DNA of 64,000 nt from Spirochaetota bacterium. GTDB lineage: Bacteria; Spirochaetota; UBA4802; UBA5550. Both the position numbers and the translations under genes were made by a program. The notes beneath the pieces are model-generated. The model did not search any database, had not been told where the DNA came from, and saw only the letters and a program-made list of their open reading frames with translations. Shown here piece after piece: positions 17,911 through 38,507 of the stretch. The first letter of the stretch is position 1. The number at the start of each line of letters is the position of its first letter. The stretch covers positions 64,077 to 128,076 of the forward strand of contig JAGNKX010000006.1 of assembly GCA_017999915.1 (NCBI GenBank). Reading direction: 5' to 3'.

Positions 17911-18107
17911 GCAGGCACCTTCCTGAATGTGCTGGATAGATTTATCATGCAACTGGTCTATAAATAGAGTAATCGCAGATATAATTCAACACAAATTTTA
18001 CCGAGCATCGGTTGCCGAGCGGAGTCGAGGCAAAATATTACTCGACACATCGAAGAACGATGATATCATGTGGTGCAGTTCAAATACCAATCGTGAAGGG
18101 GGCTGTC

Positions 18108-18458: not shown

Positions 18459-18463
18459 CGGCC

Positions 18464-19537: not shown

Positions 19538-19676
19538 ACTGTTTCCTCTCCAGTCAATGATTTGGATCTACCGATTTTATTTGCCCATAATCGAACAGAG
19601 CAATAAACAGGCAGGAATTAGATCGTTTATAATAAGTAACTCGGGTCAGGTGTTTTTTAATATAAATAAATAACAA

Positions 19677-19914
19677 CGAATTTGATATCTCATTTTTTCG
19701 ATGTGATATATAATAGAATACTTTAATTTATCCTAAAACGAGCAAAACATGGATGTTTTGCGTTAAGCGAGGATGGTCGCCGACGTGGTTTTGACATCCT
19801 GTCAATGTCGGCACTGCCAACCTCCTGTTGGCAGCAGATGGACCCTCCGCAGCAAAACAAACGATTACAAATAGCTCTCTAACGAAACGAGTAAAAAATG
19901 AGATATCAAATTCG
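19677..19914. mobile_element. 238-bp element bounded by perfect 22-bp terminal inverted repeats CGAATTTGATATCTCATTTTTT. The GC-rich core carries several hairpins. It may be a MITE, an invertible DNA segment or a structured RNA.
   Basis: The terminal inverted repeats are at 19677-19698 and 19893-19914 (exact reverse complements). The core hairpins are GACAT-CCTGTCA-ATGTC and CTGCCAAC-CTCCT-GTTGGCAG. Confidence 0.55.
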
Positions 19915-20004
19915 CTAATATCACATATAATAATAAAAAACGCCTGACTCAAGTAAATAATATAGAATTGTTAATAGTCGAGAAGAAATTAATCAAAAAA
20001 ATCA

Positions 20005-20055
20005 TTGACACCAGAACCCTACTGAATATAGTTCACATATTGAATATTATTCAAT
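20005..20055 (+). promoter_or_regulatory. Promoter of xsc. The -35 is TTGACA at 20005-20010, followed by a 16-bp spacer and a -10 TATAGT at 20027-20032. Two operators, TGAATATAGTTCA and ATTGAATA-T-TATTCAAT, overlap the -10 and the transcription start.
   Basis: Read directly. There is a perfect 8-1-8 palindrome at 20039-20055. The RBS GGAGG lies 8 bp before the ATG. Confidence 0.55.
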
Positions 20056-20080
20056 AATTTTTACCCCGCTGGAGGCTGAA

Positions 20081-21805
20081 ATGACAAAAATGACCCCATC
20101 CGAAGCATTCGTTGAATCACTGGTAGCCGAGGGAATAACCACCACCTTTGGTATCGTCGGGAGCGCCTACATGGACGCCCTGGACCTTTATCCTACGGCG
20201 GGGATACGCTTCATTTCCGTGGCCCACGAGCAGGCTGCGGCCCATGCGGCTGACGGCCTTGCCCGGGTGACCGGCAGGCCCCAGACCTGCATCGCCCAGA
20301 ACGGGCCCGGCGCCGCAAACTTCATATCCGCCATAACCGCTGCCTTCTGGGCCCATTCGCCGGTGGTGGCCATCACCCCGGAGACAGGCAGCATGGGCAT
20401 CGGCACCGGCGGGTTCCAGGAGCTCGACCAGATGCCCTGGTTCGAGAAATGCACCAAGTTCCAGGTCCGGGTAAACCGGCCCGAGCGGATGGCGGAGCTG
20501 ACCCGCCGCTGCTTCTACATGGCAAAGCTCCTGTCCGGCCCGGTGCAGCTCAACATCCCCCGGGACTTCTACTATGGCGATTTGGACTGCGAGATATTCA
20601 AATCGGGCGACGTCAATTACGGCAGCGGCCCCGAGGGTCTGATCAAGAAAGCGGCGGAGCTCCTGGCCAAAGCGAAGAACCCGGTCATCCTCGCCGGCGG
20701 CGGCGTATCCATGGCCAACGCCATTGATGAGACAAAGGCCCTGGCGGAGTACCTTACCTCGCCGGTGGTGAACACCTATCTCCATAACGACACATTCCCG
20801 GCGGCCCACGAGCTGGCCGTGGGCCCCATCGGCTACTGCGGGTCCAAGGCGGCCATGCGCTCCATCGCGAAGGCCGACGTGGTCCTGGCACTGGGAACGC
20901 GCCTGGGGCCCTTCGGCACGCTGCCCCAGTACGACATAGCCTACTGGCCAAATTCGGCGAAGCTCATCCAGGTCGACATCGACGGCACCCAGCTGGGCGT
21001 TTCGAAGAGGATCGACCTCGGCATCGTGGCCGACGCGCGGGAGTTCGCCCTGCAGCTCCTGAAGGCCCTGAAGGCCGTCGACGGGAGCCGTCAGAAGAAC
21101 ACGGCCCGCCTGGCCGATATCGCGAAGGAAAAGGCCGCCTGGAAGGAGGAGCTCGATTCCTGGTCCTCCTCGACCAACAAGCTGATGCACCCGCGCCGCT
21201 TCATCAAGGAGCTCACCGACGCCATTCCCGACGGGTCCATCGTGGCCACGGACATCGGCAATAATTCATCAATTTGCAACAGTTACCTGAAGTTTACCGG
21301 ACCGCGCCAGCACATCTCGGCCCTCTCCTGGGGGAACTGCGGCTTCGCCTACGGGGCCGCCATGGGCGCCAAGATAGGGGCCCCGGGCACGCCGGTCTTC
21401 GCCCTCCAGGGCGACGGCGCCTACGGCATCAGCGGCCTCTCGGAAGTGATGACCGCGGTGCGGGAGAACATCCCCGTCATAGCGGTGGTCTTCAACAACC
21501 ACGAGTGGGGCGCGGAGAAAAAGAACCAGATCGACTTCTTCAAGAGCCGCTTTGTCGGCGCTGATTTATTGACGAACCCGGACTACGACCAGGTGGCGAA
21601 GGACATGGGCGCCGTCGGCTTCAAGGTGGAGAACTACGCCGACGTGAAGGACGTCGTCCGCGAGGCGGTGAAGTGCGGCAAGCCCGTGGTCATCAACGCG
21701 GTGATCGAGGGCGGCGAGAAGGTCCTGGCGGAGCCGTTCCGCCGCGACGCCTTCAAGCCGGCGGTGCGCTACCTGCCCAAGTACAAGCACCTGAGCGCCG
21801 TGTAG
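20081..21805 (+). CDS. xsc: Sulfoacetaldehyde acetyltransferase (ThDP-dependent); produces acetyl phosphate and sulfite.
   Basis: 574 aa. It has Xsc-specific stretches (GTGGFQELDQMPWFE, NIPRDFYYG, HNDTFPAAHELAVGPIGYCGSKAAMRSIAKADVVLALGTRLGPFGTLPQYDIAYWP). These match characterised Xsc far better than generic ALS. Confidence 0.85.
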   Translation: MTKMTPSEAFVESLVAEGITTTFGIVGSAYMDALDLYPTAGIRFISVAHEQAAAHAADGLARVTGRPQTCIAQNGPGAANFISAITAAFWAHSPVVAITPETGSMGIGTGGFQELDQMPWFEKCTKFQVRVNRPERMAELTRRCFYMAKLLSGPVQLNIPRDFYYGDLDCEIFKSGDVNYGSGPEGLIKKAAELLAKAKNPVILAGGGVSMANAIDETKALAEYLTSPVVNTYLHNDTFPAAHELAVGPIGYCGSKAAMRSIAKADVVLALGTRLGPFGTLPQYDIAYWPNSAKLIQVDIDGTQLGVSKRIDLGIVADAREFALQLLKALKAVDGSRQKNTARLADIAKEKAAWKEELDSWSSSTNKLMHPRRFIKELTDAIPDGSIVATDIGNNSSICNSYLKFTGPRQHISALSWGNCGFAYGAAMGAKIGAPGTPVFALQGDGAYGISGLSEVMTAVRENIPVIAVVFNNHEWGAEKKNQIDFFKSRFVGADLLTNPDYDQVAKDMGAVGFKVENYADVKDVVREAVKCGKPVVINAVIEGGEKVLAEPFRRDAFKPAVRYLPKYKHLSAV

Positions 21806-21824
21806 GCCGCTGCCGGGAGGGGCG

Positions 21825-23018
21825 ATGAAGGTCCTGGTGATCAACGCGGGAAGCAGTTCCCTGAAATTCCAGGTCCATGACGGAGACGCCGGGGCCATGG
21901 TCGTCAAGGGCCATTACCTCGATATCGGCGAGACCTCCGCGGACCGCGCCTGCGTGCGGAAGATAACCGCTCGGGGCGCGGAGGAGAAGACGGAGATGGC
22001 GGTCAGGGACCACCGCTCCGCCATCCTTGACATGCTGGGGCTCCTCGAATCGAGGGGCGCCGCTTCCGGCCGGTGCGGCATCTCCGCCGTCGGCCACCGC
22101 ATCGTCCACGGCGGCGAGCGCTACAGCGCGGCCGCGCGGATCACGGCGGACGTGCGGGACTACCTCGAGTCGATATCGTTTCTCGCTCCGCTCCATAATC
22201 CAGTCGGCCTCGCCTGCGTCGACGAGATCGCGGCGTCGCTGCCGGACCTGCCGCAGTACGCCATCTTTGACACGGCCTTTCACCGGACCATCCCGGAGAC
22301 GGTCTACCTCTACGGGCTCCCGATGGAGCTCTACACGAAATACGGCATACGGAAATACGGCTTCCACGGCACCAACCACAAGTACGCGGCGCACCGGGCC
22401 GCGGAGATCATGGGCCGGGACATAGCCTCCCTGAGGATCATAACCTGCCACCTGGGCAACGGCCAGAGCGTCTGCGCCGTGAAACGGGGTCAGAGCGTGG
22501 ACACCTCCATGGGGTTCACCCCCCTGGAGGGCCTGCCGATGGGGACGCGGAGCGGCTCCTTCGACCCGGCCATAATCTTTTTCCTGATAGACCAGGGCTA
22601 CGAACCGGACGAGATCAGGACCATGGTCAACAAGCGGTCCGGACTCCTCGGCGTGTCCGGGATCAGCAGCGACTTCAAGGTCCTGGAGGAGAGGGCGCGG
22701 GGCGGGGATGAAAACGCCAAGCGTGCCGTCGATATGCTCGCCAACCGCATCACCTGCCTGATCGGAGCCTACACGGCGGAAATGTCCGGGGCCGACGCCA
22801 TCGTGTTCACCGGCGGCATCGGGGAGAATTCGGCGTTTTTGCGGAAGGAAGTTCTGGGCGCCCTGGCCCATACGGGCCTCGCCGTCGACGACAGGGCCAA
22901 TGAGGCCCATGATGAAGTGATCACCGCGCCGGGAAGCGCGGTCACGGCCCTGGTGATACCCGCGGACGAGGAGCTTCAGATCGCGCGGGAAGTGATCGGG
23001 GCGATCGAGGGACAATGA
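21825..23018 (+). CDS. ackA: Acetate kinase.
   Basis: 397 aa. It has MKVLVINAGSSSLKFQ and HRIVHGG motifs. It is 19 bp after xsc with its own RBS. Confidence 0.9.
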   Translation: MKVLVINAGSSSLKFQVHDGDAGAMVVKGHYLDIGETSADRACVRKITARGAEEKTEMAVRDHRSAILDMLGLLESRGAASGRCGISAVGHRIVHGGERYSAAARITADVRDYLESISFLAPLHNPVGLACVDEIAASLPDLPQYAIFDTAFHRTIPETVYLYGLPMELYTKYGIRKYGFHGTNHKYAAHRAAEIMGRDIASLRIITCHLGNGQSVCAVKRGQSVDTSMGFTPLEGLPMGTRSGSFDPAIIFFLIDQGYEPDEIRTMVNKRSGLLGVSGISSDFKVLEERARGGDENAKRAVDMLANRITCLIGAYTAEMSGADAIVFTGGIGENSAFLRKEVLGALAHTGLAVDDRANEAHDEVITAPGSAVTALVIPADEELQIAREVIGAIEGQ

Positions 23019-23361
23019 TACCAGGAGATGTCAGATAGAGACTTTTCGGTACGAATACCAGGGTCTTTGAAATTTCAACGGGCAAAAGGAAACCTCGCAG
23101 TCGCAGAGGGGATCGCCCTGGGGCGGAGGGGACTGGTCCTGTCCCCCGCTTCTATCCCTGACCCACCGGGCGGCCTCTTCCTCGGTGTCGGCGAACCCGG
23201 CGCTGAAAATAATCTCGCTTTTGCAGTGCCGGTAGCCATAGATAAGCTCATATCGTTCCTTCATGGCTGGTCGATTTCTCCCCTGGTTTCCTCGATCAAT
23301 ATCCCCGGGAAGAGCTTCCGGTAAACAATGCTTCTTTTATCGACACCGGGCCCTTTTTGTA

Positions 23362-23425
23362 TTGACAGGGGAAGAGTTGTCCGACATAGTCTCATATAAT
23401 GAATATTATTCATAATATGAATATA
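23362..23425 (+). promoter_or_regulatory. Promoter of the SDR operon. The -35 is TTGACA at 23362-23367, followed by 17 bp and a -10 CATAGT (there is also a TATAAT at 23395-23400). Operators are ATGAATA-T-TATTCAT at 23399-23413 and an extra ATGAATAT half-site at 23418-23425.
   Basis: Read directly. It has the same TGAATA-T-TATTCA core as the xsc operator. Confidence 0.5.
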
Positions 23426-23517
23426 ATTTATTGCAAGCAGTTTATTATGGCAGCGGCAAAAAAAGCGAAAATCCGGGTTGTGCGGCATCGACGGCATGAC
23501 CCTTCAGGAGAACAATC

Positions 23518-24354
23518 ATGATGACAGATCTCAAAGGAAAGACGGCCCTGGTCACCGGGGCCGGAAAAAAGACCGGCATGGGCTATGCCATGGCGCGCAA
23601 GCTGGCCTCGTTTGGAACCAATGTAATCATTGCGGACCTGGGGGGAGCGGCCCCGGCGGGCGCCCAGGTCGCCACGGGCACGACCGCGGATATGCAGGAG
23701 ATCGCCGAGTCCCTCGGCAGGGAATTCGGCGTCAGGACCATGGCCGTACCGGTGGACGTGTCAAGCACCGAGTCCGTCGCCGCCATGGCGGAGGCGGTGA
23801 AGGGGAAATTCGACCATGTGGACATCCTCTGCAACAACGCCGGCGCCTCCTTCGGCGTCCCGGCCGCGGTCCATACCTATGACGAGGCGGCGTGGATGAG
23901 GACCGTGGACATCAACCTCCACGGCGTCTTCCGGGTCTCCCGGGCCATGCTTCCCCTCATGCTGGGAAAGCCGGCCAGCATCGTGAACAACGCCTCGCGG
24001 GCCGGCAAGTTTCCCCCGGTCATGAACGGGGCCTACGCGGTGGCCAAGGCCGGGGTGATCATGCTCACCAAGGTGATGGCCAAGGAGCTGGCCGGAGCCG
24101 GCGTGCGCGTCAACGCCATCTGCCCCGGCCAGATCATGACCGACCTGGAGCGGTGGCGCTTCGGGCTGGAGGCGAAGGTCTTCCAGACGACGGCTGAGGA
24201 GCGCGAGAAGGAGATGTGCAAGACGATACCCCTGGGACGCATCGGCACCCCGGAGGAGGTGGCGAACCTGACGGCGTTCCTCGCCTCGGAGGCGTCGTCG
24301 TACATGACCGGCCAGGCGATCAACGTCACCGGCGGGCAATTAATGGAATTGTAA
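23518..24354 (+). CDS. SDR-family oxidoreductase (FabG/IsfD-like).
   Basis: 278 aa. It has TGAGKKTGMG, NNAG and YAVAK motifs. Confidence 0.85.
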   Translation: MMTDLKGKTALVTGAGKKTGMGYAMARKLASFGTNVIIADLGGAAPAGAQVATGTTADMQEIAESLGREFGVRTMAVPVDVSSTESVAAMAEAVKGKFDHVDILCNNAGASFGVPAAVHTYDEAAWMRTVDINLHGVFRVSRAMLPLMLGKPASIVNNASRAGKFPPVMNGAYAVAKAGVIMLTKVMAKELAGAGVRVNAICPGQIMTDLERWRFGLEAKVFQTTAEEREKEMCKTIPLGRIGTPEEVANLTAFLASEASSYMTGQAINVTGGQLMEL

Positions 24355-24380
24355 GATATTGATATCACCCCCGCCGCAAT

Positions 24381-24403
24381 CCTCCCCCATCAAGGGGAGG
24401 AGG
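24381..24403. repeat. REP-like GC hairpin CCTCCCC-CATCAA-GGGGAGG.
   Basis: Read directly. It belongs to the same family as the hairpins at 45194-45215 and 45274-45294. Confidence 0.5.
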
Positions 24404-24456
24404 TCGCGGGAACAAGATAGTGTATAGTAAGAATAAACAATCTCAGGAGTGTTAAC

Positions 24457-26151
24457 ATGGAAAAGATGATCGGCGGAAGACTTGCCGCGGAAGCCCTTAT
24501 AGAACGCGGCGTGAAGTATATTTTTACCATAAGCGGCGGACACATAACCCCGGTTTATGAATTTCTCGAGAATACCAGCGTGAAGCTGTTTTGCACGCGC
24601 CACGAGCAGGCGGCGGTCTTCATGGCCGAAGCCATGGCGCGCATGACGCGGCAGCCCGCCGTGGCGATGGTGACCGCGGGGCCCGGCTTCACCAACGCCC
24701 TCACGGGGATCGCCAGCGCCCGCCTCGCCAACGCGCCGGTCATTCTCATCTCGGGCATCGTGGGTCTGGAGATGTCGGAGAAGCTTGACCTCCAGGACAT
24801 GGTCCAGCTCCCCGTGATCCAGCCGATGGTGAAAAAGGCCCTGGTGTGCAACAACGTCGAGCGGATACCTGAATTCATCGATATGGCCTTCCGGTACGCC
24901 ATGCAGGGGCGTCCCGGACCGGTGTACCTGGAGATACCCGTGGACGTGCTGAACGCGAAGCCCGACATGGGCAAGGTAAAGAAATACCAGAGCACCATCG
25001 TGTCGAAGACCGTGGACACGGCGGCGGCGGAAAAGATCGTGGACATGCTCGGCCAGGCGAAGAAGCCGATCGTCATAGCCGGGAGCGGCGCCTGGTGCGC
25101 CGACGCCGGTCCGGAGCTCGTATCGTTTGTCGAGAAGACGGGAATGCCCGCCATGACCATGGCCGGCGCCCGCGGCCTTATCCCCGACACGCACCCACTC
25201 TGCTTTGAATCGGCCCTGGCCATCCGGCCGGGGGCGGCCCTGGTGGCCGACACCCAGGCGGACCTTGTCCTCTTCCTCGGATCGCGTCTGAGCCTTTTTT
25301 TCATTTTCGGGGGCATCTTCAACCCGAACGCCAAGTTCATACAGGTCGACATCGAGGCGGAGGAGATCGGACGGAACCGTTCCGTGGACCTCGGCGTGGT
25401 GAGCGATATCAAGATGCTGCTGGCGGAGATCAACCGGATCATCGACGCCCGGAAGCTCGGGCCGTCCCTCGTGAAGCAGTACGCGGAATGGGTGGAGGCG
25501 GTCAAGGCCGCGGACGCCAACGGCAAGGCCCAGGCGAAGCCGATGTGGGAAAAGGAGGGAGCGCCGATCCATCCGATGCGGCTGGCCCATGAGATCAACA
25601 AGTTCATGGACCGCGAGGACGACATCGTCGTGGCCGACGGCGGGGACACCACCACCTGGATGGGGATGACCCGCACCGTGCGCCGGCCGGGGCATTATCT
25701 CGATTACGGCCTCTTCGGCAGCCTGGCCGTGGGCATACCCTACGCCAACGCGGCCAAGCTCATCAATCCGGACAAGCGGGTTCTCCTGGTCATCGGCGAC
25801 GGGGCCGCGGGATTCAACTTCATGGAGTTCCACACCGCCATCCGGCACAACATTCCGATCGTGGTGGTCGTGGCCAACGACACCCTCTTCGGCATGATCG
25901 CCCACAGCCAGCAGATCCGCCTCGGCCACGCCATCAAGGACGGGACCGACCTGGGCATGGTCAATTACGAGAAGATGGTGGAGGCACTGGGCGGCTTCGG
26001 CGCCTTTGTCGACAAGCCAGAGGACATCCGGCCGGCCATCGAGGCGGCCTTCAAGTCCGGCAAGACCGCCTGTATCAACGTGATGGTCGATCCGTCGACG
26101 ATCAGTCCGGGCAGTGTGGCCCTGGCCAACCTGGGGGCGTACAAGGCCTAA
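24457..26151 (+). CDS. ThDP-dependent enzyme of the 2-hydroxyacyl-CoA lyase / oxalyl-CoA decarboxylase (HACL/Oxc) subfamily.
   Basis: 564 aa. YIFTISGGHITPV, RHEQAAVFMAEAMARMT...AGPGFTNALTG and GRPGPVYLEIPVDVL align with HACL1/Oxc rather than with Xsc or ALS. Confidence 0.65.
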   Translation: MEKMIGGRLAAEALIERGVKYIFTISGGHITPVYEFLENTSVKLFCTRHEQAAVFMAEAMARMTRQPAVAMVTAGPGFTNALTGIASARLANAPVILISGIVGLEMSEKLDLQDMVQLPVIQPMVKKALVCNNVERIPEFIDMAFRYAMQGRPGPVYLEIPVDVLNAKPDMGKVKKYQSTIVSKTVDTAAAEKIVDMLGQAKKPIVIAGSGAWCADAGPELVSFVEKTGMPAMTMAGARGLIPDTHPLCFESALAIRPGAALVADTQADLVLFLGSRLSLFFIFGGIFNPNAKFIQVDIEAEEIGRNRSVDLGVVSDIKMLLAEINRIIDARKLGPSLVKQYAEWVEAVKAADANGKAQAKPMWEKEGAPIHPMRLAHEINKFMDREDDIVVADGGDTTTWMGMTRTVRRPGHYLDYGLFGSLAVGIPYANAAKLINPDKRVLLVIGDGAAGFNFMEFHTAIRHNIPIVVVVANDTLFGMIAHSQQIRLGHAIKDGTDLGMVNYEKMVEALGGFGAFVDKPEDIRPAIEAAFKSGKTACINVMVDPSTISPGSVALANLGAYKA

Positions 26152-26161
26152 AGCATAATGA

Positions 26162-26197
26162 CGCCATGGGCGCGCTAATGTGTGCGCGCCCATGGCG
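26162..26197. other. Perfect 14-bp GC-rich stem CGCCATGGGCGCGC-taatgtgt-GCGCGCCCATGGCG between the ThDP and MFS genes.
   Basis: Read directly. There is no U-tract, so it is a processing, attenuation or protein-binding structure rather than a classical terminator. Confidence 0.45.
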
Positions 26198-26241
26198 GAT
26201 AATATATCAATACAAGGTTATCATATTCCACAGGAGGTATT

Positions 26242-27534
26242 ATGATGAACGGTCAAAGCGGTACCCATGAATACAAATTATCCAGGGGGTATACGAACTA
26301 TGTTTTCATCCTCCTGTTCCTCCTCTACTTCTTCGACTACGTGGACCGCATGGTGGTCACGTCGCTCTTTCCCTATATCAAGGAGGAGTGGGCCATCTCC
26401 GACGCCCAGTGCGGCATGCTGGTGTCCGCCATCTACTGGTCCATTATCATATTCACCATTCCGGCGTCGGTGCTGGTAGACCGCTGGAGCCGGAAGAAGA
26501 CCATCGGACTCATGGCGGTCATCTGGAGCATCGCCACCGCCGTGTGCGCCCTTACCAAGAATTTCGGCCAGCTCTTTGCCGCGCGGGGCGTCATCGGGGT
26601 GGGCGAGGCCGGGTACGCGCCGGGCGGCACCGCCATGCTCGCGGGCCTCTACCCGGAGGAAAAGCGGTCGAGGATGATGGGCATCTGGAACGCCTCCATA
26701 CCGCTGGGAAGCGCCGTGGGCATAGCCCTGGGCGGCATTATAGCCAAGGAGTTCGGATGGCGCCACGCCTTCGGCCTGGTCGCCCTGCCGGGCCTGATCG
26801 TGGCGATCCTCTTCTTTTTCGTCAAGGATTACAAGACCGTGGAGCTGGTCAAGACCGCGGATGTTGGCGGTTCCAAGGTCGCCATGAGCAAGATGGACAT
26901 ATTCAGGGAATTCATCCACACCCCGTCGCTCATCTTCACCTATTTCGGCTTCGCGGCCATGACCTTCGTGACCACGTCGCTCATCACCTGGCTCCCGACC
27001 TTCTTCCACCGCGTCTATGAACTGCCCATGGACCAGGCGGGAATGAAGGGGGGCTCGGTAATGCTCCTTGCGCTGGTGGGCGCGCCGGTGGGCGGGCTCC
27101 TCGCGGACCTGTGGCTGAAGAAAAGAAAGAACGCCCGCCTTGTGTTCTCGTCGATCGTGGCGGTCCTTTCCGCGATCTTTCTCGGATCGGGGCTGCTCTT
27201 CTTTACCGGCAACATGCAGTACGTACTCATACTGCTCATGGGCCTGGTGGTGGTCGCCTTCGTGCCGGCCGCGGCCGCGGTGACCCAGGACGTGGTGCAC
27301 CCCGGACTCCGGGCCATATCCTACGCCCTGTGCGTCATAGTGCAGAATCTTCTGGGCTCTTCCATGGGGCCCATCGTGGTAGGCTCCATTTCCGACGGCT
27401 ATAACATACAGACGGCCCTCTCCATTCTGCCGATATTCCTGCTCGTCGCGGCGGCGCTTTTCTTCGTGGCTTCGTTGTTCTACGAGCGGGACCTGGACAA
27501 GGTGGAAAAGGTGACGCTGGAAGTGGAGGGCTGA
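26242..27534 (+). CDS. MFS transporter.
   Basis: 430 aa with 12 predicted TM segments. It has an MFS signature (GRWSRKKT, GVGEAGYAPGG). Confidence 0.8.
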   Translation: MMNGQSGTHEYKLSRGYTNYVFILLFLLYFFDYVDRMVVTSLFPYIKEEWAISDAQCGMLVSAIYWSIIIFTIPASVLVDRWSRKKTIGLMAVIWSIATAVCALTKNFGQLFAARGVIGVGEAGYAPGGTAMLAGLYPEEKRSRMMGIWNASIPLGSAVGIALGGIIAKEFGWRHAFGLVALPGLIVAILFFFVKDYKTVELVKTADVGGSKVAMSKMDIFREFIHTPSLIFTYFGFAAMTFVTTSLITWLPTFFHRVYELPMDQAGMKGGSVMLLALVGAPVGGLLADLWLKKRKNARLVFSSIVAVLSAIFLGSGLLFFTGNMQYVLILLMGLVVVAFVPAAAAVTQDVVHPGLRAISYALCVIVQNLLGSSMGPIVVGSISDGYNIQTALSILPIFLLVAAALFFVASLFYERDLDKVEKVTLEVEG

Positions 27535-27544
27535 GATGTGAAGA

Positions 27545-27667
27545 CCCTCACCCCCCCGTCCCCCTCTCCCATTAAAAACTGGAGAAAGGAGAGGGGGAGC
27601 ATATAGAGTAGCCCTCTCCTTTTTTCCAAGCTTCATGGGAGAGGGCGCGCCGGAGACGGGGTGAGGG
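27545..27667. mobile_element. MITE-like repeat, copy B (short version of the element at 9074-9248).
   Basis: The terminal inverted repeats are CCCTCACCCCCCCGTC ... GACGGGGTGAGGG. The CCCTCTCC...GGAGAGGG core is shared with copy A. Confidence 0.6.
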
Positions 27668-27775
27668 AAAAAAAGATTCAACGCGGAGGCGCTGATGAGT
27701 AATCCGTCCTCTGCGACTCAGCGTTGATAAAGCGGTTGATCGCACACTATTGTGAAGTGGTGAAGGTGACAAGGC

Positions 27776-28591
27776 ATGATAGAACACGAACAATTCAACA
27801 ACAAGATCGTCGCCGTGACCGGCGGGGCCAGCGGCATCGGCGAGGCGCTGTGCCGCAGGTTCGGTAAGGCCGGGGCGAAAGTGGCGGTCATCGACATGGA
27901 CGGCAGGGGCGCTGACAGGCTGGCCGGCGAGCTGAAAGACGGCGGGATCGAGGCGGCCGGGTTCGCCTGCGATGTCAGCAAGCAGAAGGAGTGCGAGGCC
28001 GTTATCGGAGCGATCATCAAGCGCTGGGGCGGCATCGACGTGCTGGCGGTGAACGCCGGGATCACCCAGCGGAGCCCCTTCGTGGACACGGACCCGGCCG
28101 TATACCGGCGCGTCATGGACATCAATTTCTTCGGGGCCCTTTATTGCGCAAAGGCGGCCATAAAAGACTTGATCGCGAGAAAGGGTGTGATAGTGGTGAC
28201 ATCAAGCCATGCCGGCTACAGCCCCCTACTCGGAAGGACCGGATACAGCGCGAGCAAGCACGCCCTCCACGGGCTCTTTGAGAGCCTGCGTACGGAGGTG
28301 AGGCCCCTGGGCGTCCATGTCATGATGGTCTGCCCCGGCTTCACGAAGACCAATCTCCAGACAAGGGCCCTCGGGTCGAACGGTACGGTGACGACGCACC
28401 CGCAGTCGAGGGTGGGCAAACAGGACACCCCGGGCCATGTGGCCGAGGCCGTGTTCCGTGGAACGGTGCAGCGCAAGAACATCATCGTGCTGACCACGGT
28501 GGGAAAGCTCACCTATTACCTGCACCGCCTGGCGCCGGCGCTGTACGAACGGCAGATGGCCAAAAAATTACGTTCGGAGATCGAACGGTAA
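27776..28591 (+). CDS. SDR-family oxidoreductase.
   Basis: 271 aa. It has VTGGASGIG, NAG and YSASK motifs. Confidence 0.85.
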   Translation: MIEHEQFNNKIVAVTGGASGIGEALCRRFGKAGAKVAVIDMDGRGADRLAGELKDGGIEAAGFACDVSKQKECEAVIGAIIKRWGGIDVLAVNAGITQRSPFVDTDPAVYRRVMDINFFGALYCAKAAIKDLIARKGVIVVTSSHAGYSPLLGRTGYSASKHALHGLFESLRTEVRPLGVHVMMVCPGFTKTNLQTRALGSNGTVTTHPQSRVGKQDTPGHVAEAVFRGTVQRKNIIVLTTVGKLTYYLHRLAPALYERQMAKKLRSEIER

Positions 28592-28600
28592 AAACAGAGA

Positions 28601-29236
28601 GTGAGACCAATGGGATCACAGGAACGCAGGGAACGGGAAAAGGAAGAGAGAAAGAACCACATCCTCAAGGCGGCGCGGACGCTTCTCCTGAAAAAAGGGC
28701 TCCACGCCACCACGGTCAACCAGATCGCCAAGCTCTCCGAGCTGAGCGTGGGCACCATATACCTCTATTACCACAACAAGGAAGATATTTTCGCGGCGCT
28801 CCAGGAGGAGGGGCTGGCAATGCTGAACGACCAGATAGGGAAGGCCGTGGCGGCGGCGTCCTCCCCGAAGGAGAAGATCAAGGCGGTCGCCCTGGGGTAT
28901 CTCGAGTTCAGCGAAAAGCAGAAGAACTACTACGACATCATCACCTATTTTCTATCGACGCCGGAGCAGCTTTTTCCGCCGCGCCTGAAGAACAGGGTCG
29001 ACAAGACCGGCGGCAGGATCCTCGGCTTCTGCACCGAGGCGATCGAGGCGGGAATGAAGTCAGGCGAATTCAGGAAGGTCAACGCGCGGCGCCACACCAT
29101 CTGGCTCTGGGGCATGCTCCACGGCCTGATCCAGTTCAGGAAGATGGAGAAGACCATCCTCCAGAAAGAGAGCTACACCTCCCTGGTGCAGTACGCCCTC
29201 GAGAATTACCTGAAGACCCTGGCCCCGGAAAAGTAA
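28601..29236 (+). CDS. TetR-family transcriptional regulator.
   Basis: 211 aa. It has an HTH (ATTVNQIAKLSELSVGTIYLYYHNKEDIF). It is 9 bp after the SDR. Confidence 0.8.
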   Translation: MRPMGSQERREREKEERKNHILKAARTLLLKKGLHATTVNQIAKLSELSVGTIYLYYHNKEDIFAALQEEGLAMLNDQIGKAVAAASSPKEKIKAVALGYLEFSEKQKNYYDIITYFLSTPEQLFPPRLKNRVDKTGGRILGFCTEAIEAGMKSGEFRKVNARRHTIWLWGMLHGLIQFRKMEKTILQKESYTSLVQYALENYLKTLAPEK

Positions 29237-29263
29237 ACCCTCCGGCCGTTATCATATTCTCCT

Positions 29264-30865
29264 TTAAAGGTCCCACTTGATGATAGGGGCCTTGACGTCC
29301 ACCATGGCGTTGACGATGAGCTCGACGAGCCCGCCGTAGGCCATCCCCGATTTTTCCCGTACCCCGTAATAATCGAAGAGGTCCCTGATCTGTCCCTTGC
29401 AGTTGGAGCAGGGAGCGCACAGGTATTTTTTTGTATCCGGACCGGGGCAGTCGGCAAAGGCCTCCAGTATCTGCCGGAGCTTCATCCTCCCCGCCACGCT
29501 CACACGCCAGTCCCGGAAGTTGTTCTGGCCCATAATGGCGAAGCCGCTCCCGCCGCCGCAGCAGTAGTTATCCGCGCCGTGGGGCTCCATCTCGCGGAAC
29601 TGCGGGCAGAGCTTCCGGATGATGCGGCGCTGGGGCTCCACGATGCCCAGGTTCCGCACGATGTTGCACGGGTCGTGGAGGGTCACCGGGAAGTCGTTCT
29701 TCGACGGGTCGAAGGCGATCCGGCCGCCCATGACGATCTCCTCCAGGAAGGTGAGGGAGCTCTCCCGGGGGATGTTCAGGTCTCCGGTGAGGATGCGGTC
29801 CGCTATGGTTATCAGGGCCTTGTGGGCGTGGCCGCACTCGCCGAGAATCACTTTCTTGACCTTGAGCTTCTTCGCGGCCTCCATGTGCTTCATCACGATG
29901 CGGGAGAGCTGCACGTCGTCGTAGAAGAGGCCGTAGTTCACGCTGTCGTAGGCGGGTGCCTCGGACGACAGGGTCCAGCTCACGCCGGCCGCGTTCAGGA
30001 TGATGGCGAAGGCGGCAGGATTCTCAGGCCAGGCCAGGATCTCGCCAGCGTTGTGCATGAGGAGCACGTCGGCGCCCTCTTTGTCCCAGGGCGTTTCGAT
30101 GGTTATGCCCAGCTCCTCGGACAGGTCCTCGTCGAGGAAGTCGACGTTGTCTTTCACCACGTTCGGCTTCATGCCGGTGGATGATCCGACCGCGAGTTGG
30201 AGCACAGTTCCCTTCTCGTGGAGCTCCTTCGGCGCCCAGCCGAGCTCCTGGCTGAAGAGCTTGCGGAGCTCCCTGGTCACCAGGGCGTTGTCGAGGCCCA
30301 TGGGGCAGGCCTGGGCGCAGCGCCGGCAGAGGGTGCACCGGTATGAAAGCTCGTAAAGGCGGCTCACCGCGGTCCAGTTCAGGTCGATATCCTCGAGCCT
30401 GAGCTTCGCCATGATCCCGCCGCCGGGTCTCGCGTATTTTTTAACCAGCCGCCGGAACACCTCGGAGCGGTACGTGGGGCGGTAGATCTCGTTCCCGCCG
30501 CTTTCGCGGTAGATCGGGCAGGCCTGGGAGCAGGTCTGGCACCGGGCGCAGTAGTCTATCGTGAGGAGGAGCGGCTGGAGGAAGGTCCAGTTGTTCTCCC
30601 GCGATAGGAGCTTTTGGAGCCCGGCGATGAAAGCTTCGACGACGCGCCGCTCATCGGCCGCGTCCTTCGGCTTCGGAAGGGAGAGGGCCGCCACGCCGTC
30701 GAGGTCGCAGGCAATGGTGTTGCGCTGGTCGTCGCTGAGCTTTTTCCATCCGGGCTGGTCCTCGATCCGGTCATAGGGAGGCGGGAGGGGAAGGAGGTCG
30801 TTGACGTTTATCTCGGTGAGGGGCGCCTCGCCCCTGCTTATATCTTTGATCCCTGTTTTTTTCAT
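29264..30865 (-). CDS. DsrK/HdrD-like iron-sulfur protein (paralog). It has two ferredoxin CxxCxxCxxxCP motifs plus a C-terminal CCG domain.
   Basis: 533 aa. It has CARCQTCSQACP, CTLCRRCAQACP and ...YCCGGGSG. It is a paralog of the DsrK at 34085-35710. Confidence 0.7.
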   Translation of the reverse strand: MKKTGIKDISRGEAPLTEINVNDLLPLPPPYDRIEDQPGWKKLSDDQRNTIACDLDGVAALSLPKPKDAADERRVVEAFIAGLQKLLSRENNWTFLQPLLLTIDYCARCQTCSQACPIYRESGGNEIYRPTYRSEVFRRLVKKYARPGGGIMAKLRLEDIDLNWTAVSRLYELSYRCTLCRRCAQACPMGLDNALVTRELRKLFSQELGWAPKELHEKGTVLQLAVGSSTGMKPNVVKDNVDFLDEDLSEELGITIETPWDKEGADVLLMHNAGEILAWPENPAAFAIILNAAGVSWTLSSEAPAYDSVNYGLFYDDVQLSRIVMKHMEAAKKLKVKKVILGECGHAHKALITIADRILTGDLNIPRESSLTFLEEIVMGGRIAFDPSKNDFPVTLHDPCNIVRNLGIVEPQRRIIRKLCPQFREMEPHGADNYCCGGGSGFAIMGQNNFRDWRVSVAGRMKLRQILEAFADCPGPDTKKYLCAPCSNCKGQIRDLFDYYGVREKSGMAYGGLVELIVNAMVDVKAPIIKWDL

Positions 30866-30868
30866 TAT

Positions 30869-31765
30869 CTATTTCCCCTGAGCGATATCGATCCAATTTT
30901 TTGAGCCCTCCGATCCGACATGGGGAGCGGACCATCGGACCGGTTGGCCGAGCAGCTTTTTTATCTTCTCTTCAGCGGCCGCGTCCATGGGGCTATCGTC
31001 CCAGAGGACGCTGTGAAAGGTGAAGAATTTCGCGGCAAAGTGCCTCATGGAGGTGAAGGGAAGCACGGCCAGGAAGAAGAGGACCGCGCCGATGTGCGCC
31101 GCCCCTGCCCGTGACAGTGAAATATGCGAATCGGCCCTGAATACCGCTTCGATGAAGTCCCTGATCTGGGAGGCCAGGTCGCCGTCCGCGACCAGGGAGG
31201 ACACGCCCGTGGCGAAAAGGGCCAGCAGGATGATCAGGTTCAGGTAGGCCGAGATCCCGGAGTAGGAGCGGAGGTCCCGGCGCACCGCCCGCAGCACCAG
31301 CAGCGACAGTGACCCGGCGAGGCCGAAGAGGTAGCCAATGGTGCCGAGGAAAACGGCTATTCCTTCGAGGAAAGCCGCGGCGGAAGAGAACCCGGCCGCG
31401 TCGACAGCGGCGGCGGCCGCCAGGCACAGCGCCATGAAGAAGATGAAGTAGATGCCGCCATGGAGGGCCATCGAAAAGGGCCAGAGCCGCCTGTGTCCCT
31501 TCCATACGGTGTGGAGAAGGAAAATTTCCTTCATCATATAAATGATTTCATGAATTATGGAGCGCTCCCGGGGCTTCATCCACCAGTCCTGCACCTCGAA
31601 ATAAGAGCCTCCGTAGGATGAGCCGGCCCTGTCATGGGGCACCGGCGCGAGCTCCCACCGGAGATGGGCCGGTAGGCGGGCGATGCGGACAATGCACGCC
31701 GCGATGCCTGCGATGAAGATTGCGATAGATGAGTAAGCGGCAATGAGCCAGATTGTTCCGTTCAT
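30869..31765 (-). CDS. DsrM/NarI-like membrane cytochrome b (paralog); the likely partner of the preceding DsrK-like gene.
   Basis: About 299 aa from the internal MNGTIWL start, which has an RBS. It is a polytopic membrane protein. Confidence 0.6.
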   Translation of the reverse strand: MNGTIWLIAAYSSIAIFIAGIAACIVRIARLPAHLRWELAPVPHDRAGSSYGGSYFEVQDWWMKPRERSIIHEIIYMMKEIFLLHTVWKGHRRLWPFSMALHGGIYFIFFMALCLAAAAAVDAAGFSSAAAFLEGIAVFLGTIGYLFGLAGSLSLLVLRAVRRDLRSYSGISAYLNLIILLALFATGVSSLVADGDLASQIRDFIEAVFRADSHISLSRAGAAHIGAVLFFLAVLPFTSMRHFAAKFFTFHSVLWDDSPMDAAAEEKIKKLLGQPVRWSAPHVGSEGSKNWIDIAQGK

Positions 31766-31782
31766 GGGTCCTCCAGGGTGCG

Positions 31783-32931
31783 TCAATCTCTCCGCCGCAC
31801 CGCGGCTGTTATCTTGAAGAGCAGGGTAAGGATGAAAAGCCCCGTTGCCCACACGCCGAGGGTGATGAATACTTCGGCCAGGGTGGGCCGGTACGACGGT
31901 ATCTTCTCGAGGGGATCGGGGATGAATCCTCCCACCACGAAGCCGAGGCCCTTCTCGATCCACACGGAGGCGAACACGGCGATGGCCGCGATAAGAAGGC
32001 CCGCGTCGCGCCGCCGCGCCGGCGTGTAGAGAATCGCCAAGGCGGCGACTGCCAGGGCTATGGAAATCCACATATAGGGCGTGAGCGACGAGGGATCACC
32101 CCAGCCCCAGAAGAGCCGCTCCAGCGGCGCCCGGTGCGTGGGGATGCCGCTGTAGAGGGCGGTGAATATTTCGAGAATAATGAAAAAGACATGGGCGCTG
32201 AAGGCGTAGGTGATGATGGTCCCCAGGGAGCGCTCGGGCCGGTCGCCCGGGTCGAAATCCGTATAGCGCCGCGCCACGCGGCAGAGCACGATGAGGAGGG
32301 CCGGGCCGGAGGAAAAGGCCGACGCCAGGAAGCGCGCCGCCGTGATGGCCGTGAGCCAGAGGTGCCGCCCCGGGAGCCCCGCGTACAGGAAGGCGGTCAC
32401 GGTGTGGATGCTGATCGCCCAGGGGATCGACAGGTAGATGACCGGCTTCACCCAGGCGGGCGGCGGCGTTCCCCGGTGCTCGGCCGTGAGGACCGTCCAC
32501 CCGATCAGGATGTTGATTACCAGGTATAGGGAAAGGACCACCGTGTCCCAGAACATGGGGGACGTCGGCGACGGATAGAGTATGACGTGGAGTATCCGGA
32601 AGGGCTGTCCCAGGTCGACGAAGATAAAGAGAAGGCACATGACGACCGCGGACACCGCCAGGAATTCCCCCAGGATCGTGATCCTGCCGAAGGCCCGGTG
32701 GTCGTGGAGGTAGTAGGGGAGCACCACCGTCACGGCCGAGGCGGCCACGCCCACCAGGAAGGTGAACTGGGCGATGTAGAGGCCCCAGGACACGCTCCGG
32801 GACATGCCGGTAACGGAAAGACCCTCTGTTGTCTGTTTAAAGTAAAAGAATATCCCCGCTGCGATGAAGAGGCCCAGTGCCAGGAGAAGGAGCCAGTAGC
32901 GCCGCGGGCCATGGAACACTTTTTCTATCAT
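31783..32931 (-). CDS. dsrP: DsrP (NrfD/PsrC-family integral membrane subunit).
   Basis: About 382 aa from MIEKVFHGP (GAGG RBS upstream). It has 10 predicted TM helices and the NrfD family pattern. It is the last gene of dsrMKJOP. Confidence 0.75.
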   Translation of the reverse strand: MIEKVFHGPRRYWLLLLALGLFIAAGIFFYFKQTTEGLSVTGMSRSVSWGLYIAQFTFLVGVAASAVTVVLPYYLHDHRAFGRITILGEFLAVSAVVMCLLFIFVDLGQPFRILHVILYPSPTSPMFWDTVVLSLYLVINILIGWTVLTAEHRGTPPPAWVKPVIYLSIPWAISIHTVTAFLYAGLPGRHLWLTAITAARFLASAFSSGPALLIVLCRVARRYTDFDPGDRPERSLGTIITYAFSAHVFFIILEIFTALYSGIPTHRAPLERLFWGWGDPSSLTPYMWISIALAVAALAILYTPARRRDAGLLIAAIAVFASVWIEKGLGFVVGGFIPDPLEKIPSYRPTLAEVFITLGVWATGLFILTLLFKITAAVRRRD

Positions 32932-32938
32932 GGAATCC

Positions 32939-33709
32939 TCACAGGAGATAGTATACGGCCGGGTCGGTCCCGAGCTCCGGTTTTCGCCGGAGGGCGATCC
33001 TTCCGGCCAGTGCCTTCCGCACCGCCGAGGCGCCATCGCGGAGGTCGCCGAAGGCAATGGCCTTTTCACCGCAGGCGGACGCGCACAGGGGCTCCTGGCC
33101 GCGGTCGACCCGCTCCGCGCAGAACTCGCATTTTTCCACGGTCCCCTTGGTGCGGGTCGGGTAGTCTTTATTGATAGATTGCTTCGCCAGGTATTTTCGC
33201 GGGTCGCTCCAGTTGAAGCTCCGGGAGCCGTAGGGGCAGGCAGCCATGCAGTAGTGGCAGCCGATGCAGCGGTGCTGGTCCATCATGACGATGCCGTCGC
33301 CGCGCTTCCAGGTCGCGCCGGTGGGGCACACCCGCACGCAGGGCGGGTTCCCGCACTGGTTGCAGAGAAGCACCGGTTTCGCGCCGCGCAGTTCCCCGCC
33401 GGAAAAGTCGTCCAGGACGCCGGGCATGGCGCGCTCCAGGTCGTCCCGCCAGATCCAGGCGATGGCCCGCTTCACGTCCGGTATGGCCGGCACGTTGTGG
33501 CCCCGGTGGCAGGCGTCGACGCACTTCTCGCACTGCCCCGCCTTCAGGCAGGCCCGGAGGTCCACCGCCATGGCGAGGCGTTTTCCGGCCGGCGGCGCGG
33601 TTTCGGCGCCGAGGGCTTTGCCGGCCATGATCTCGAAGGAGGCGCCGCCGAATATGATGATGCCGGTGCGCCAGGCCTTTCTCAGGAATTCAAGCCGTGT
33701 CAGTTCCAT
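32939..33709 (-). CDS. dsrO: DsrO (periplasmic FeS ferredoxin-like subunit, PsrB/HmcB family).
   Basis: 256 aa. It has multiple 4Fe-4S motifs (CNQCGNPPCVRVCP, CIGCHYCMAACP, CEFCAERVDRG). It has an N-terminal Tat-like signal. Confidence 0.75.
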   Translation of the reverse strand: MELTRLEFLRKAWRTGIIIFGGASFEIMAGKALGAETAPPAGKRLAMAVDLRACLKAGQCEKCVDACHRGHNVPAIPDVKRAIAWIWRDDLERAMPGVLDDFSGGELRGAKPVLLCNQCGNPPCVRVCPTGATWKRGDGIVMMDQHRCIGCHYCMAACPYGSRSFNWSDPRKYLAKQSINKDYPTRTKGTVEKCEFCAERVDRGQEPLCASACGEKAIAFGDLRDGASAVRKALAGRIALRRKPELGTDPAVYYLL

Positions 33710-34092
33710 GGTCCCCGCTCCGATGTGTCGATATGGCAGTCAAAGCAGGCCGGTGCCGACCCCAGGGCGGTGTGGCAGCGGTCGCAGAAATTTTCTTTTT
33801 TAGCATGGCATTTGAGGCAGGAGCCGCTGAGGCTCTTCTCGTACTGTTTGCCGCCGATTGTCACGGCGCTGCGGACGCCCTTCCGCACGACATCGTCGCG
33901 CCATTGAAAGAGGAGGGTCATGTGGTTCGCCCTCATCTCCGACGCGGGGAGGACGCATTCTTTTTCAACGGCGGGCTTTTCCGGCGCCGGCGATTTTTTC
34001 TTCGCGCCGCGCAGGACGTTCCACCAGAAGGGCGCCCCCACCAGGGCGGCGACCAGGGTCAATGCGGCGGCCGTCTTTATTATCCTACTCAT
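33700..34092 (-). CDS. dsrJ: DsrJ (periplasmic triheme cytochrome c).
   Basis: 130 aa with a signal peptide. It has three CxxCH motifs (CLKCH, CDRCH, CFDCH). Confidence 0.8.
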   Translation of the reverse strand: MSRIIKTAAALTLVAALVGAPFWWNVLRGAKKKSPAPEKPAVEKECVLPASEMRANHMTLLFQWRDDVVRKGVRSAVTIGGKQYEKSLSGSCLKCHAKKENFCDRCHTALGSAPACFDCHIDTSERGPWN

Positions 34093-38486: not shown

Positions 38487-38507
38487 CTATCGCAGGAGGA
38501 AAACATT

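Follow-up and report, generated by a model that had tools for sequence, protein, structure and literature searches.

A Thiamine Diphosphate Enzyme Cluster beside xsc and dsr Genes, a Probable Front End of Sulfonate Respiration in an Uncultured Spirochaete

Introduction

What is the task of five genes which directly follow the genes for sulfoacetaldehyde acetyltransferase (xsc) and acetate kinase (ackA) in the DNA of a Spirochaetota bacterium? The stretch in question, called the window in the following, comprises 64,000 nucleotides (GenBank assembly GCA_017999915.1, contig JAGNKX010000006.1, positions 64,077 to 128,076 of the forward strand), and positions given below are counted from its first letter. 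The five genes encode a short-chain dehydrogenase/reductase (SDR1), a thiamine diphosphate (ThDP) enzyme named ThDP2 here, a transporter of the major facilitator superfamily (MFS), a second SDR (SDR2), and a TetR-family regulator. With a probability of roughly 80% this cluster forms the substrate-specific entry to an organosulfonate-respiration regulon under the control of TetR, feeding a sulfonate into Xsc and the dissimilatory sulfite reductase (Dsr) system.

C2 and C3 sulfonates, among them 2,3-dihydroxypropanesulfonate (DHPS), sulfolactate, and isethionate, play a major part in the cycling of carbon and sulfur, and in anoxic habitats they give rise to hydrogen sulfide. The routes described so far for their anaerobic breakdown depend, to our knowledge, on glycyl-radical enzymes, SuyAB, or CuyA. 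The host of the window is an uncultured anaerobic spirochaete; in a protein search ThDP2 matched, with 100% identity, the entry "MAG: Spirochaetes bacterium", MAG standing for metagenome-assembled genome.

The Locus

Gene identities were taken from family scans against Pfam and NCBIfam with their curated cut-offs. The scans found the five genes in the order and with the families given in the preliminary description, downstream of xsc and ackA.

20081-21805, plus strand: xsc, sulfoacetaldehyde acetyltransferase (TIGR03457, 749.6 bits, above the cut-off of 676.4)
21825-23018, plus strand: ackA, acetate kinase (PF00871, 437 bits; TIGR00016, 433 bits, cut-off 293)
23518-24354, plus strand: SDR1, classical SDR dehydrogenase (adh_short_C2, 188 bits; TGxxxGxG and YxxxK motifs)
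24457-26151, plus strand: ThDP2, ThDP enzyme of 564 amino acids (TPP_enzyme_N, M, and C domains)
26242-27534, plus strand: MFS transporter of the anion:cation symporter type (ACS-type) (MFS_1, 201 bits; top NCBIfam model the D-galactonate/ACS-type TIGR00893)
27776-28591, plus strand: SDR2, second NAD+-type SDR (PRK06181, 288 bits, cut-off 215)
28601-29236, plus strand: tetR, TetR-family regulator (TetR_N, 51 bits, cut-off 24)
29264-32071, minus strand: DsrK-like/DsrM-like pair, directly beside tetR
31783-36683, minus strand: DsrP, DsrO, an unannotated stretch at the place expected for DsrJ, DsrK, and DsrM (family scans)
37320-39566, plus strand: dsrA and dsrB, dissimilatory sulfite reductase (TIGR02064, 560 bits, and TIGR02066, 494 bits, both above cut-off)

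As xsc and ackA, the five-gene cluster, and the Dsr genes adjoin one another, the cluster is embedded in a complete sulfite-respiration locus, in which DsrAB is the sink for the sulfite released by Xsc. AckA gains ATP from the acetyl phosphate which Xsc produces.

The DsrK-like/DsrM-like pair at 29264-32071 on the minus strand comes on top of the canonical DsrMKJOP set. Its DsrK-like protein scores 315 bits on the DsrK model, which has a cut-off of 400, and the true DsrK at 34085-35710 scores 698 bits. The same DsrK/DsrM duplication is found among the Syntrophaceae, for instance at L003 and L041 of the census described below.

Promoters, Operator, and Regulon

Common control of the cluster and xsc is indicated by the regions in front of the two transcription units, where a search for promoter elements and a motif scan yielded the following features.

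20005-20032, plus strand: sigma-70-like promoter of xsc, TTGACA-16-TATAGT
20023-20035 and 20041-20053, plus strand: operators of xsc, the first with two mismatches, the second an exact TGAATATTATTCA
23362-23390, plus strand: sigma-70-like promoter of the SDR1 operon, TTGACA-17-CATAGT
23400-23412 and 23418-23430, plus strand: operators of SDR1, the first an exact TGAATATTATTCA, the second with two mismatches
37236-37248, plus strand: operator-like palindrome TGAATGGTATTCA with one mismatch, about 70 bp 5' of dsrA

Position 23362, at which the preliminary description had let the cluster begin, is the -35 hexamer of the SDR1 promoter. The same description had claimed one operator for both promoters, and this holds to the letter: the 13-bp palindrome TGAATATTATTCA is identical at xsc and SDR1, a second, degenerate copy lies 18 bp from each, and the motif is phylogenetically conserved. 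When up to two mismatches are allowed, the window contains nine matches to TGAATATTATTCA, compared to 0.84 expected. Since the operators directly follow strong sigma-70-like promoters they cover the -10/+1 regions of xsc and SDR1, which is the placement expected for a TetR-type repressor. The TetR_N score of the regulator, the positions of the operators, and their conservation all agree with a TetR-family repressor and its operator.

In 1.26 Mb of related loci the motif TGAAT-N3-ATTCA occurs 35 times, about 0.3 occurrences being expected from base composition, and 30 of these 35 sites are located at most 300 bp 5' of SDR1, xsc, or a small open reading frame (ORF). Many loci have a site 45-140 bp 5' of SDR1, and a homologous site is found 26-59 bp 5' of Xsc in L005-L009, L017, L018, and L066. 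The motif is kept 5' of SDR1 and xsc in more than one phylum, namely in Spirochaetota and at several loci of Syntrophaceae and Desulfobacterales, and qualifies as a phylogenetic footprint. The TetR protein is the presumed ligand of these operators, with binding predicted from the sequence.

In front of dsrA an exact copy of the palindrome, TGAATACTATTCA, is present in L066 (19081-19093), and the distance to dsrA is 40-70 bp in the window and L066. The palindrome in both genomes suggests that the regulon takes in the sulfite reductase and that dsrAB probably belongs to the same TetR regulon as xsc and SDR1.

A further element, TGAACGGTATTCA, stands in two identical copies at 42335-42347 and 44116-44128 on either side of a gene for a methyl-accepting chemotaxis protein (42413-44026, minus strand). 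The regulator of xsc and SDR1, or one related to it, may bind at these copies too, which would hint at chemotaxis toward the inducer.

Conservation of the Gene Neighbourhood

For a census of neighbourhoods one genome per species was scanned with an alignment of ThDP2 orthologs. This gave 242 relatives, of which the best 80 (66-92% identity) were taken, all of them from MAGs of Spirochaetota/Leptospirales, Syntrophaceae/Smithellaceae, and Desulfobacterales. Three further loci came from exact-protein look-ups, and the census is reported over 81 species-level loci. Flanks of 10 kb were examined; the counts given in the following refer to the 40 fully flanked loci, which have at least 5 kb on the 5' side and at least 7 kb on the 3' side.

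SDR1 lies beside ThDP2 in all 40 loci. An anion transporter accompanies the pair in 36, an MFS protein in 31 of them and otherwise a carrier of the sodium/bile-acid family (SBF), and a second dehydrogenase in 35, comprising 22 zinc-dependent medium-chain dehydrogenases/reductases (Zn-MDR) and 13 SDR2. The zinc enzyme takes the position of SDR2 in most deltaproteobacterial loci. TetR was found in 33 loci, Xsc in 25, AckA in 24, and a DsrMKJOP-like set in 21. A DASS carrier occurs in L070, L081, and L084, so that the transporters come from the mutually unrelated families MFS, SBF, and DASS.

In the typical Syntrophaceae locus the genes are arranged as dsrMKJOP-ackA-xsc-SDR1-ThDP2-MFS-ZnADH-orf-tetR, where stop and start codons overlap, and the part ackA-xsc-SDR1-ThDP2 is often translationally overlapped; in L012, L015, L016, and L019 xsc is placed between SDR1 and ThDP2. 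The neighbouring Xsc proteins form a spirochaete and a deltaproteobacterial lineage, about 50% identical to each other, which both pass TIGR03457, as do those of L001, L016, and L075. The proposed tie of the cluster to xsc is thus borne out by orthologs beside Xsc, AckA, and Dsr genes in three lineages.

It is largely confined to one part of the family. Splitting by active-site signatures yielded subtype A, to which the window belongs, with tyrosine at position 417 and alanine, serine, or threonine at position 399, and subtype B with S417 and Q399. Xsc is found within 10 kb in 24 of the 31 fully flanked subtype A loci, and a link to Xsc, AckA, or Dsr genes exists in 29 of the 31. The seven subtype A loci which lack a complete Xsc within 10 kb include L064 with a fragment of Xsc, L024, L027, and L054 with dsrAB directly after the cluster, and L041 with the order dsrMKJOP-ackA-SDR1-ThDP2 and no xsc in the locus; only L033 and L058 are devoid of any link. 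In subtype B Xsc is nearby in just one of nine loci and Dsr genes in none. The expectation that orthologs accompany xsc has therefore stood for the subtype of the window and failed for most of the S417 subtype.

These exceptions bear on the idea that the module degrades a nonsulfonated diol or hydroxy acid, in the manner of acetoin/butanediol breakdown or as a carboxylate analogue, and is merely near xsc. Such a role would suit the S417 subtype and the loci L002, L021, L059, L080, and L083, which have neither Xsc nor Dsr neighbours, and it would suit the weak scores of SDR1 on butanediol dehydrogenase models. Some loci without Xsc and Dsr lie beside genes for a BcrAD-type ATPase and HpaB/AbfD-like proteins, as seen near the ThDP2 orthologs of L083 (8097-9092 and 11767-13275) and L080, where the ATPase is of the BcrAD/BadFG type. 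For the subtype of the window we consider a nonsulfonate role very unlikely in view of the linkage in 29 of 31 loci, often with overlapping stop and start codons, of the operator common to SDR1, xsc, and dsrA, and of the transporters, all of which are anion carriers.

Subtype B loci have as neighbours in some cases the BcrAD-type ATPase and HpaB/AbfD-like genes just mentioned and in others an aldehyde:ferredoxin oxidoreductase, and the S417 enzymes may act on a different anion. Such variable neighbours may hint at the fate of an aldehyde product or at other substrates in this subtype. A pyridine-nucleotide-disulfide oxidoreductase with a rhodanese-like C-terminus is located 5' of ackA in six loci (e.g., L036, 4307-6004).

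The Thiamine Diphosphate Enzyme

ThDP2 stays below the cut-off of every curated family model. The best NCBIfam match was PRK05858, an acetolactate synthase (ALS) model of the Rv1820 type, with 399 bits versus a cut-off of 587, and all ALS models were far below their cut-offs, TIGR00118 for example with 300 versus 538 bits. An assignment as ALS or acetohydroxyacid synthase was rejected for these scores and because neither a small subunit nor ilv/als neighbours were seen in the census. A relation to ComDE was likewise dismissed, as ThDP2 is a single chain of 564 amino acids with the TPP_enzyme_N, M, and C domains, whereas ComDE consists of two short subunits without a middle domain of the pyruvate oxidase (POX) type. 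It also proved not to be a paralog of Xsc: the identity to the Xsc of the window in a pairwise alignment is 27%, Xsc models are not among its top 25 NCBIfam matches, and the glutamate of Xsc six positions after the Mg-binding asparagine (E510 in Q84H41) aligns with isoleucine 481 of ThDP2. Model scores, this low identity, and the literature agree with the preliminary description that ThDP2 is no Xsc paralog and lies outside any family of a described sulfonate pathway.

Among proteins with solved structures a sequence search of the PDB found as closest relatives 2-hydroxyacyl-CoA lyases and synthases (HACL/HACS; CoA, coenzyme A) with 260 bits, the actinobacterial AcHACL with 240, benzaldehyde lyase (BAL) with 231, and oxalyl-CoA decarboxylase (Oxc) with 216. 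With BAL from P. fluorescens, taken as a sequence 100% identical to 2ag0, ThDP2 shares its length and aligns colinearly over residues 1-551 with the same numbering and 32% identity, all three domains included. The catalytic residues H29, Q113, and E50 of BAL are kept, as are T73 and L112. Across 49 family members in which conservation was read, S26, G28, H29, E50, T73, L112, Q113, D397, D416, M480, I481, H483, S484, and Q485 are invariant, and position 488 is arginine or lysine throughout.

The residues G28-H29, T73, and L112-Q113 correspond to G43-H44, T88, and L127-Q128 of AcHACL. In the latter enzyme G43, H44, T88, and Q128 hold the carbonyl oxygen and the 2-hydroxyl group of the substrate (PMC13327070, PMC8760513). 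The catalytic glutamate E493 of AcHACL, located on the helix after the Mg loop, is replaced by the invariant I481, so that the glutamate which protonates the carbanion in AcHACL and Xsc is an isoleucine in ThDP2. The decarboxylase relative of the Oxc/HACL1 type is without the histidine which ThDP2 keeps. CoA is bound in AcHACL by Q255, R273, S274, R362, R417, D561, and K564.

The aromatic pocket of BAL is lost. Its residues A28, H26, W163, Y397, L398, H415, A480, and F484 are G, S, C/V, S/Q/A/T, T/V/I, Y/S, M, and S, respectively, in the family; we take A28, W163, Y397, H415, A480, and F484 to be the list of aromatic pocket residues from the BAL structures. This exchange for small and polar residues together with R/K488 fits a small anionic substrate, and ThDP2 appears to be built for a small, polar, probably anionic 2-hydroxy-carbonyl compound.

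An AlphaFold2 (AF2) model was calculated from 12 sequences, and a Foldseek search with it gave TM-scores of 0.76-0.81 for HACS, BAL, AcHACL, and Oxc, the highest being those of BAL and formolase (0.80-0.81) and the best E-values those of HACL/HACS and Oxc. BAL needs no CoA and splits a 2-hydroxyketone into two aldehydes, and the scaffold of its derivative formolase can reportedly handle C1 units as hydroxymethyl-ThDP.

A true 2-hydroxyacyl-CoA lyase, cleaving 3-sulfolactyl-CoA to formyl-CoA and sulfoacetaldehyde, is what the label HACL/Oxc given to ThDP2 in the preliminary description would imply. The label is right insofar as the best solved relatives by sequence, and the best Foldseek E-values, are those of HACL/HACS and Oxc, the second-best NCBIfam model is the actinobacterial HACL (NF058623), and the G-H/T/Q constellation is common to ThDP2 and AcHACL (PMC8760513). 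It proved too narrow as ThDP2, at 335.4 bits versus a cut-off of 600 for that HACL model and at 307 versus 557 (PRK09259) and 286 versus 739 bits (TIGR03254) for Oxc, remains far below the cut-offs, has I481 in place of the catalytic glutamate, and is equally similar to and colinear with the CoA-independent BAL. Furthermore, no CoA ligase or CoA transferase was found among the recurrent neighbour gene clusters of the 81 loci, and the operon carries AckA and not Pta. Action on a CoA ester is thus regarded as highly improbable. We conclude that ThDP2 founds what is, by its sequence, a putative separate family in the BAL/HACL/Oxc clade.

The Dehydrogenases

In both SDR1 and SDR2 strand beta-2 ends with an aspartate. 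By the rule established for SDRs, an aspartate at this position stands for NAD+ and for the catabolic, oxidative direction. The best PDB match of SDR1 is gluconate 5-dehydrogenase with only 129 bits, and a search for homologs of SDR1 returned only unnamed entries of the type "SDR family oxidoreductase". The faint pairing of gluconate 5-dehydrogenase with L-idonate 5-dehydrogenase in the PDB searches for the dehydrogenases is suggestive but is given no weight here. HpsO and HpsP, which are said to oxidise C2 of DHPS, are SDRs as well. The invariant pairing of SDR1 with ThDP2 suggests that SDR1 makes the substrate of ThDP2.

Proposed Pathway

In the pathway that we infer, an anionic C3 hydroxysulfonate, most likely DHPS, would be imported by the MFS carrier. 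SDR1 and SDR2 would oxidise it with NAD+ to an alpha-hydroxy-carbonyl sulfonate, oxidation at C2 leading to 3-sulfo-hydroxyacetone and oxidation at C3 to sulfolactaldehyde. The two dehydrogenases may serve two enantiomers as do HpsO and HpsP, or the second one may dispose of the aldehyde co-product. ThDP2 would then split the C1-C2 bond in a retro-acyloin reaction of the BAL/HACL type, H29 and Q113 acting on the 2-hydroxyl and carbonyl groups, and would yield sulfoacetaldehyde and a C1 unit at the oxidation level of formaldehyde. Xsc would convert sulfoacetaldehyde to acetyl phosphate and sulfite, AckA would use acetyl phosphate to form ATP, and DsrAB with DsrMKJOP would reduce the sulfite. 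When no inducer is present, TetR would occupy the palindromes over the xsc and SDR1 promoters, with dsrA perhaps controlled too.

DHPS is favoured because it is an abundant natural sulfonate the oxidation of which yields a 2-hydroxy-carbonyl compound. That DHPS rather than sulfolactate is the C3 hydroxysulfonate oxidised here and then cleaved by ThDP2 to supply Xsc is nonetheless a tentative assignment, to which we give somewhat less than an even chance. The overall conversion of DHPS to acetate, CO2, and sulfide would be electron-balanced, two electrons from the oxidation of DHPS and four from that of formaldehyde to CO2 matching the six needed to reduce sulfite to sulfide. The aldehyde:ferredoxin oxidoreductase which follows ThDP2 in L081 (11788-13611) fits an aldehyde product.

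Several observations weigh against the scheme, in addition to the Xsc-less subtype A loci and the largely unlinked subtype B already described. For a strict anaerobe the release of free formaldehyde would be awkward, and a dedicated formaldehyde enzyme was not recurrent in the neighbourhoods of the census. The H29/Q113 pair is compatible with a decarboxylase too and does not exclude one. The AF2 model is of only moderate quality (pLDDT 70), its active-site loops and C-terminus being disordered, and as Foldseek ranks HACS, BAL, AcHACL, and Oxc almost equally with it, the predicted structure does not decide between BAL and the CoA enzymes. SDR1, SDR2, and the zinc-dependent alcohol dehydrogenase gave only generic SDR/MDR matches in PDB searches. 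What the analysis shows is the identity of the genes, their conserved order, the kept operator, and the active-site residues; the substrate, the direction in which each enzyme works and what it forms, binding of TetR to the operator, and release of a C1 unit are predictions from these.

The simplest chemistry would be offered by sulfolactate: R- and S-3-sulfolactate would be oxidised to the achiral sulfopyruvate, and ThDP2, as a single-chain sulfopyruvate decarboxylase of the POX type in the place of ComDE, would form sulfoacetaldehyde and CO2. The sequence from sulfolactate over sulfopyruvate and sulfoacetaldehyde to Xsc has been described for Roseovarius nubinhibens. A toxic C1 product is not required, the evidence from synteny and regulon applies as it does to DHPS, carriers of the dianion type (DASS and ACS-type MFS) occur at loci of the family, and S26 is invariant. 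The active site, on the other hand, speaks for cleavage, as the invariant G28-H29/T73/Q113 is a hallmark of 2-hydroxy-carbonyl lyases and the histidine is missing in the decarboxylase relative of the Oxc/HACL1 type. Position 28 is moreover a glycine and not the serine which presumably enables decarboxylation, the exchange A28S giving BAL decarboxylase activity (3iae, BAL literature). Sulfolactate would also provide only two electrons per sulfite, so that an outside electron donor would be needed. Sulfolactate dehydrogenases known to us belong to families other than SDR and Zn-MDR. Taken together, sulfolactate is an unlikely substrate, yet one to be taken seriously.

Linkage to Xsc and Dsr equally applies to other sulfonates, and the two nonorthologous second dehydrogenases could mean a generic aldehyde or alcohol step. 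Isethionate might, for example, be oxidised directly to sulfoacetaldehyde, with ThDP2 acting as a carboligase or on another sulfonated acyloin such as a C4 4-deoxy-4-sulfo-ketose, from which glycolaldehyde would be released; the sulfo-transketolase pathway, where ThDP chemistry releases sulfoacetaldehyde from a C4 ketose, is a precedent. Roles of this kind are clearly unlikely, as no kinase, isomerase, or sugar-type gene is recurrent near ThDP2 in the neighbour clusters of the census loci and the constant company of SDR1 and ThDP2 speaks for SDR1 as the source of the ThDP2 substrate.

Whichever the substrate, carbonyl cleavage next to CH2-SO3 passes via the same enamine as in Xsc. Together with the Xsc-less loci L041, L024, L027, and L054 this makes expulsion of sulfite by ThDP2 conceivable. 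In this boldest form 2-sulfo-1-hydroxyethylidene-ThDP, arising from 3-sulfo-hydroxyacetone by loss of the C1 unit or from sulfopyruvate by loss of CO2, would split off sulfite and react with phosphate to acetyl phosphate. In this way ThDP2 itself would desulfonate a C3 sulfonate, Xsc would be dispensable, and ThDP2 would be the founder of a class of its own, that of ThDP C-C lyases specific for sulfonates; we treat this proposal as a long shot.

Relation to Known Systems

The Xsc funnel, AckA, Dsr, and the logic of TetR and operator are of kinds already known; the feeder enzymes are not. In the Xsc-dependent pathways for taurine, isethionate, sulfoacetate, and sulfolactate (the latter via ComDE) sulfoacetaldehyde is likewise the point of convergence, from which Xsc forms acetyl phosphate and sulfite; AckA or Pta then takes over the former and a sink the latter. 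Tpa/Toa, IseJ, SauST, and SlcD/ComDE are, however, absent here, the candidate feeder being a pair of SDRs and a POX-type ThDP enzyme, and the cluster is carried by uncultured Spirochaetota and Syntrophaceae which respire sulfite.

DHPS catabolism of Cupriavidus pinatubonensis resembles the cluster in having two SDRs (HpsO and HpsP) and an MFS transporter (HpsU), a likeness in gene family, and it passes through the 2-oxo intermediate proposed here. There 2-oxo-DHPS is only a racemisation intermediate and desulfonation proceeds via HpsN, sulfolactate, and SuyAB, whereas a ThDP enzyme and Xsc are proposed for the present locus. BAL, the closest relative of ThDP2 in residue numbering and in the TM-score of the predicted structure, differs by its hydrophobic pocket and by its role in the catabolism of aromatic compounds, in contrast to the sulfonate-respiration context of ThDP2. 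HACL and Oxc (AcHACL 7pt1, HACS 8vz*, Oxc 2c31) are the best sequence matches, and HACL, like the reaction proposed for ThDP2, releases an aldehyde one carbon shorter than its substrate; the cut-offs, the isoleucine, the absence of a CoA-activating partner gene nearby, and, for the HACL1 type, the missing histidine set them apart. In the full-text literature searched, including 2026 reviews on the catabolism of sulfoquinovose and sulfonates, no paper was found which contains this cluster or a ThDP lyase or POX-type decarboxylase feeding Xsc.

If the proposed reading is true, the module adds an oxygen-insensitive, radical-free, ThDP-based route to anaerobic sulfonate metabolism. It would imply that abundant yet uncultured members of the Syntrophaceae/Smithellaceae, of the Desulfobacterales, and of the dsr-carrying Spirochaetota in digesters, sediments, and groundwater live by sulfonate respiration, a trait which current labels such as "acetolactate synthase" and "SDR" hide. 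It would also provide a new enzyme family with a predicted polar, anion-binding pocket in the biotechnologically exploited carboligase clade of BAL and HACL, and a defined pair of TetR and operator which can be used to find the inducer.

Small Reading Frames, Repeats, and RNA-Like Elements

Between ackA and SDR1 a small conserved reading frame is found on the opposite strand.

23031-23264, minus strand: ORF of 77 amino acids containing several cysteines, 43% identical (E 5e-19) to an ORF of 82 amino acids in L003

Scans of this ORF against Pfam and NCBIfam gave no match. Its relatives are present in 35 loci of both phyla in either orientation, positioned between ZnADH and TetR or just 5' of SDR1/ThDP2, and it may be a small partner or a metal-binding protein of the module. 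The plus strand ORF98 (23028-23324) at the same place was rejected as a gene and is probably spurious, as the conserved minus strand ORF overlaps it.

Just 5' of the xsc promoter region, within 18012-19537, lie a cupin gene on the plus strand and a DUF2804 gene on the minus strand. The DUF2804 gene is divergent from xsc; only the loci closest to the window among the spirochaetes, L005, L006, and L008, have it in this position.

A scan of 17500-30000 against Rfam detected no riboswitch or other known RNA and only hairpin matches below threshold. The spacer between the MFS gene and SDR2 contains at 27545-27667 a G+C-rich nested hairpin of about 120 nucleotides with a region z-score of -6.1, of which a copy with 84% identity is located at 9080-9169. 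It looks like a dispersed palindromic element, similar to repetitive extragenic palindromes (REP) or miniature inverted-repeat transposable elements (MITE), that has been inserted into the operon. Farther along the same spacer, at about 27678-27725, lies a second hairpin.

In the AT-rich spacer of 540 bp 5' of xsc a further element at 19670-19921 consists of a 29-nucleotide inverted repeat (90% complementary) around a structured, more G+C-rich core of 194 nucleotides with a z-score of -7.3. The core is partly conserved in L005, and the element could be a small mobile element or a small RNA.

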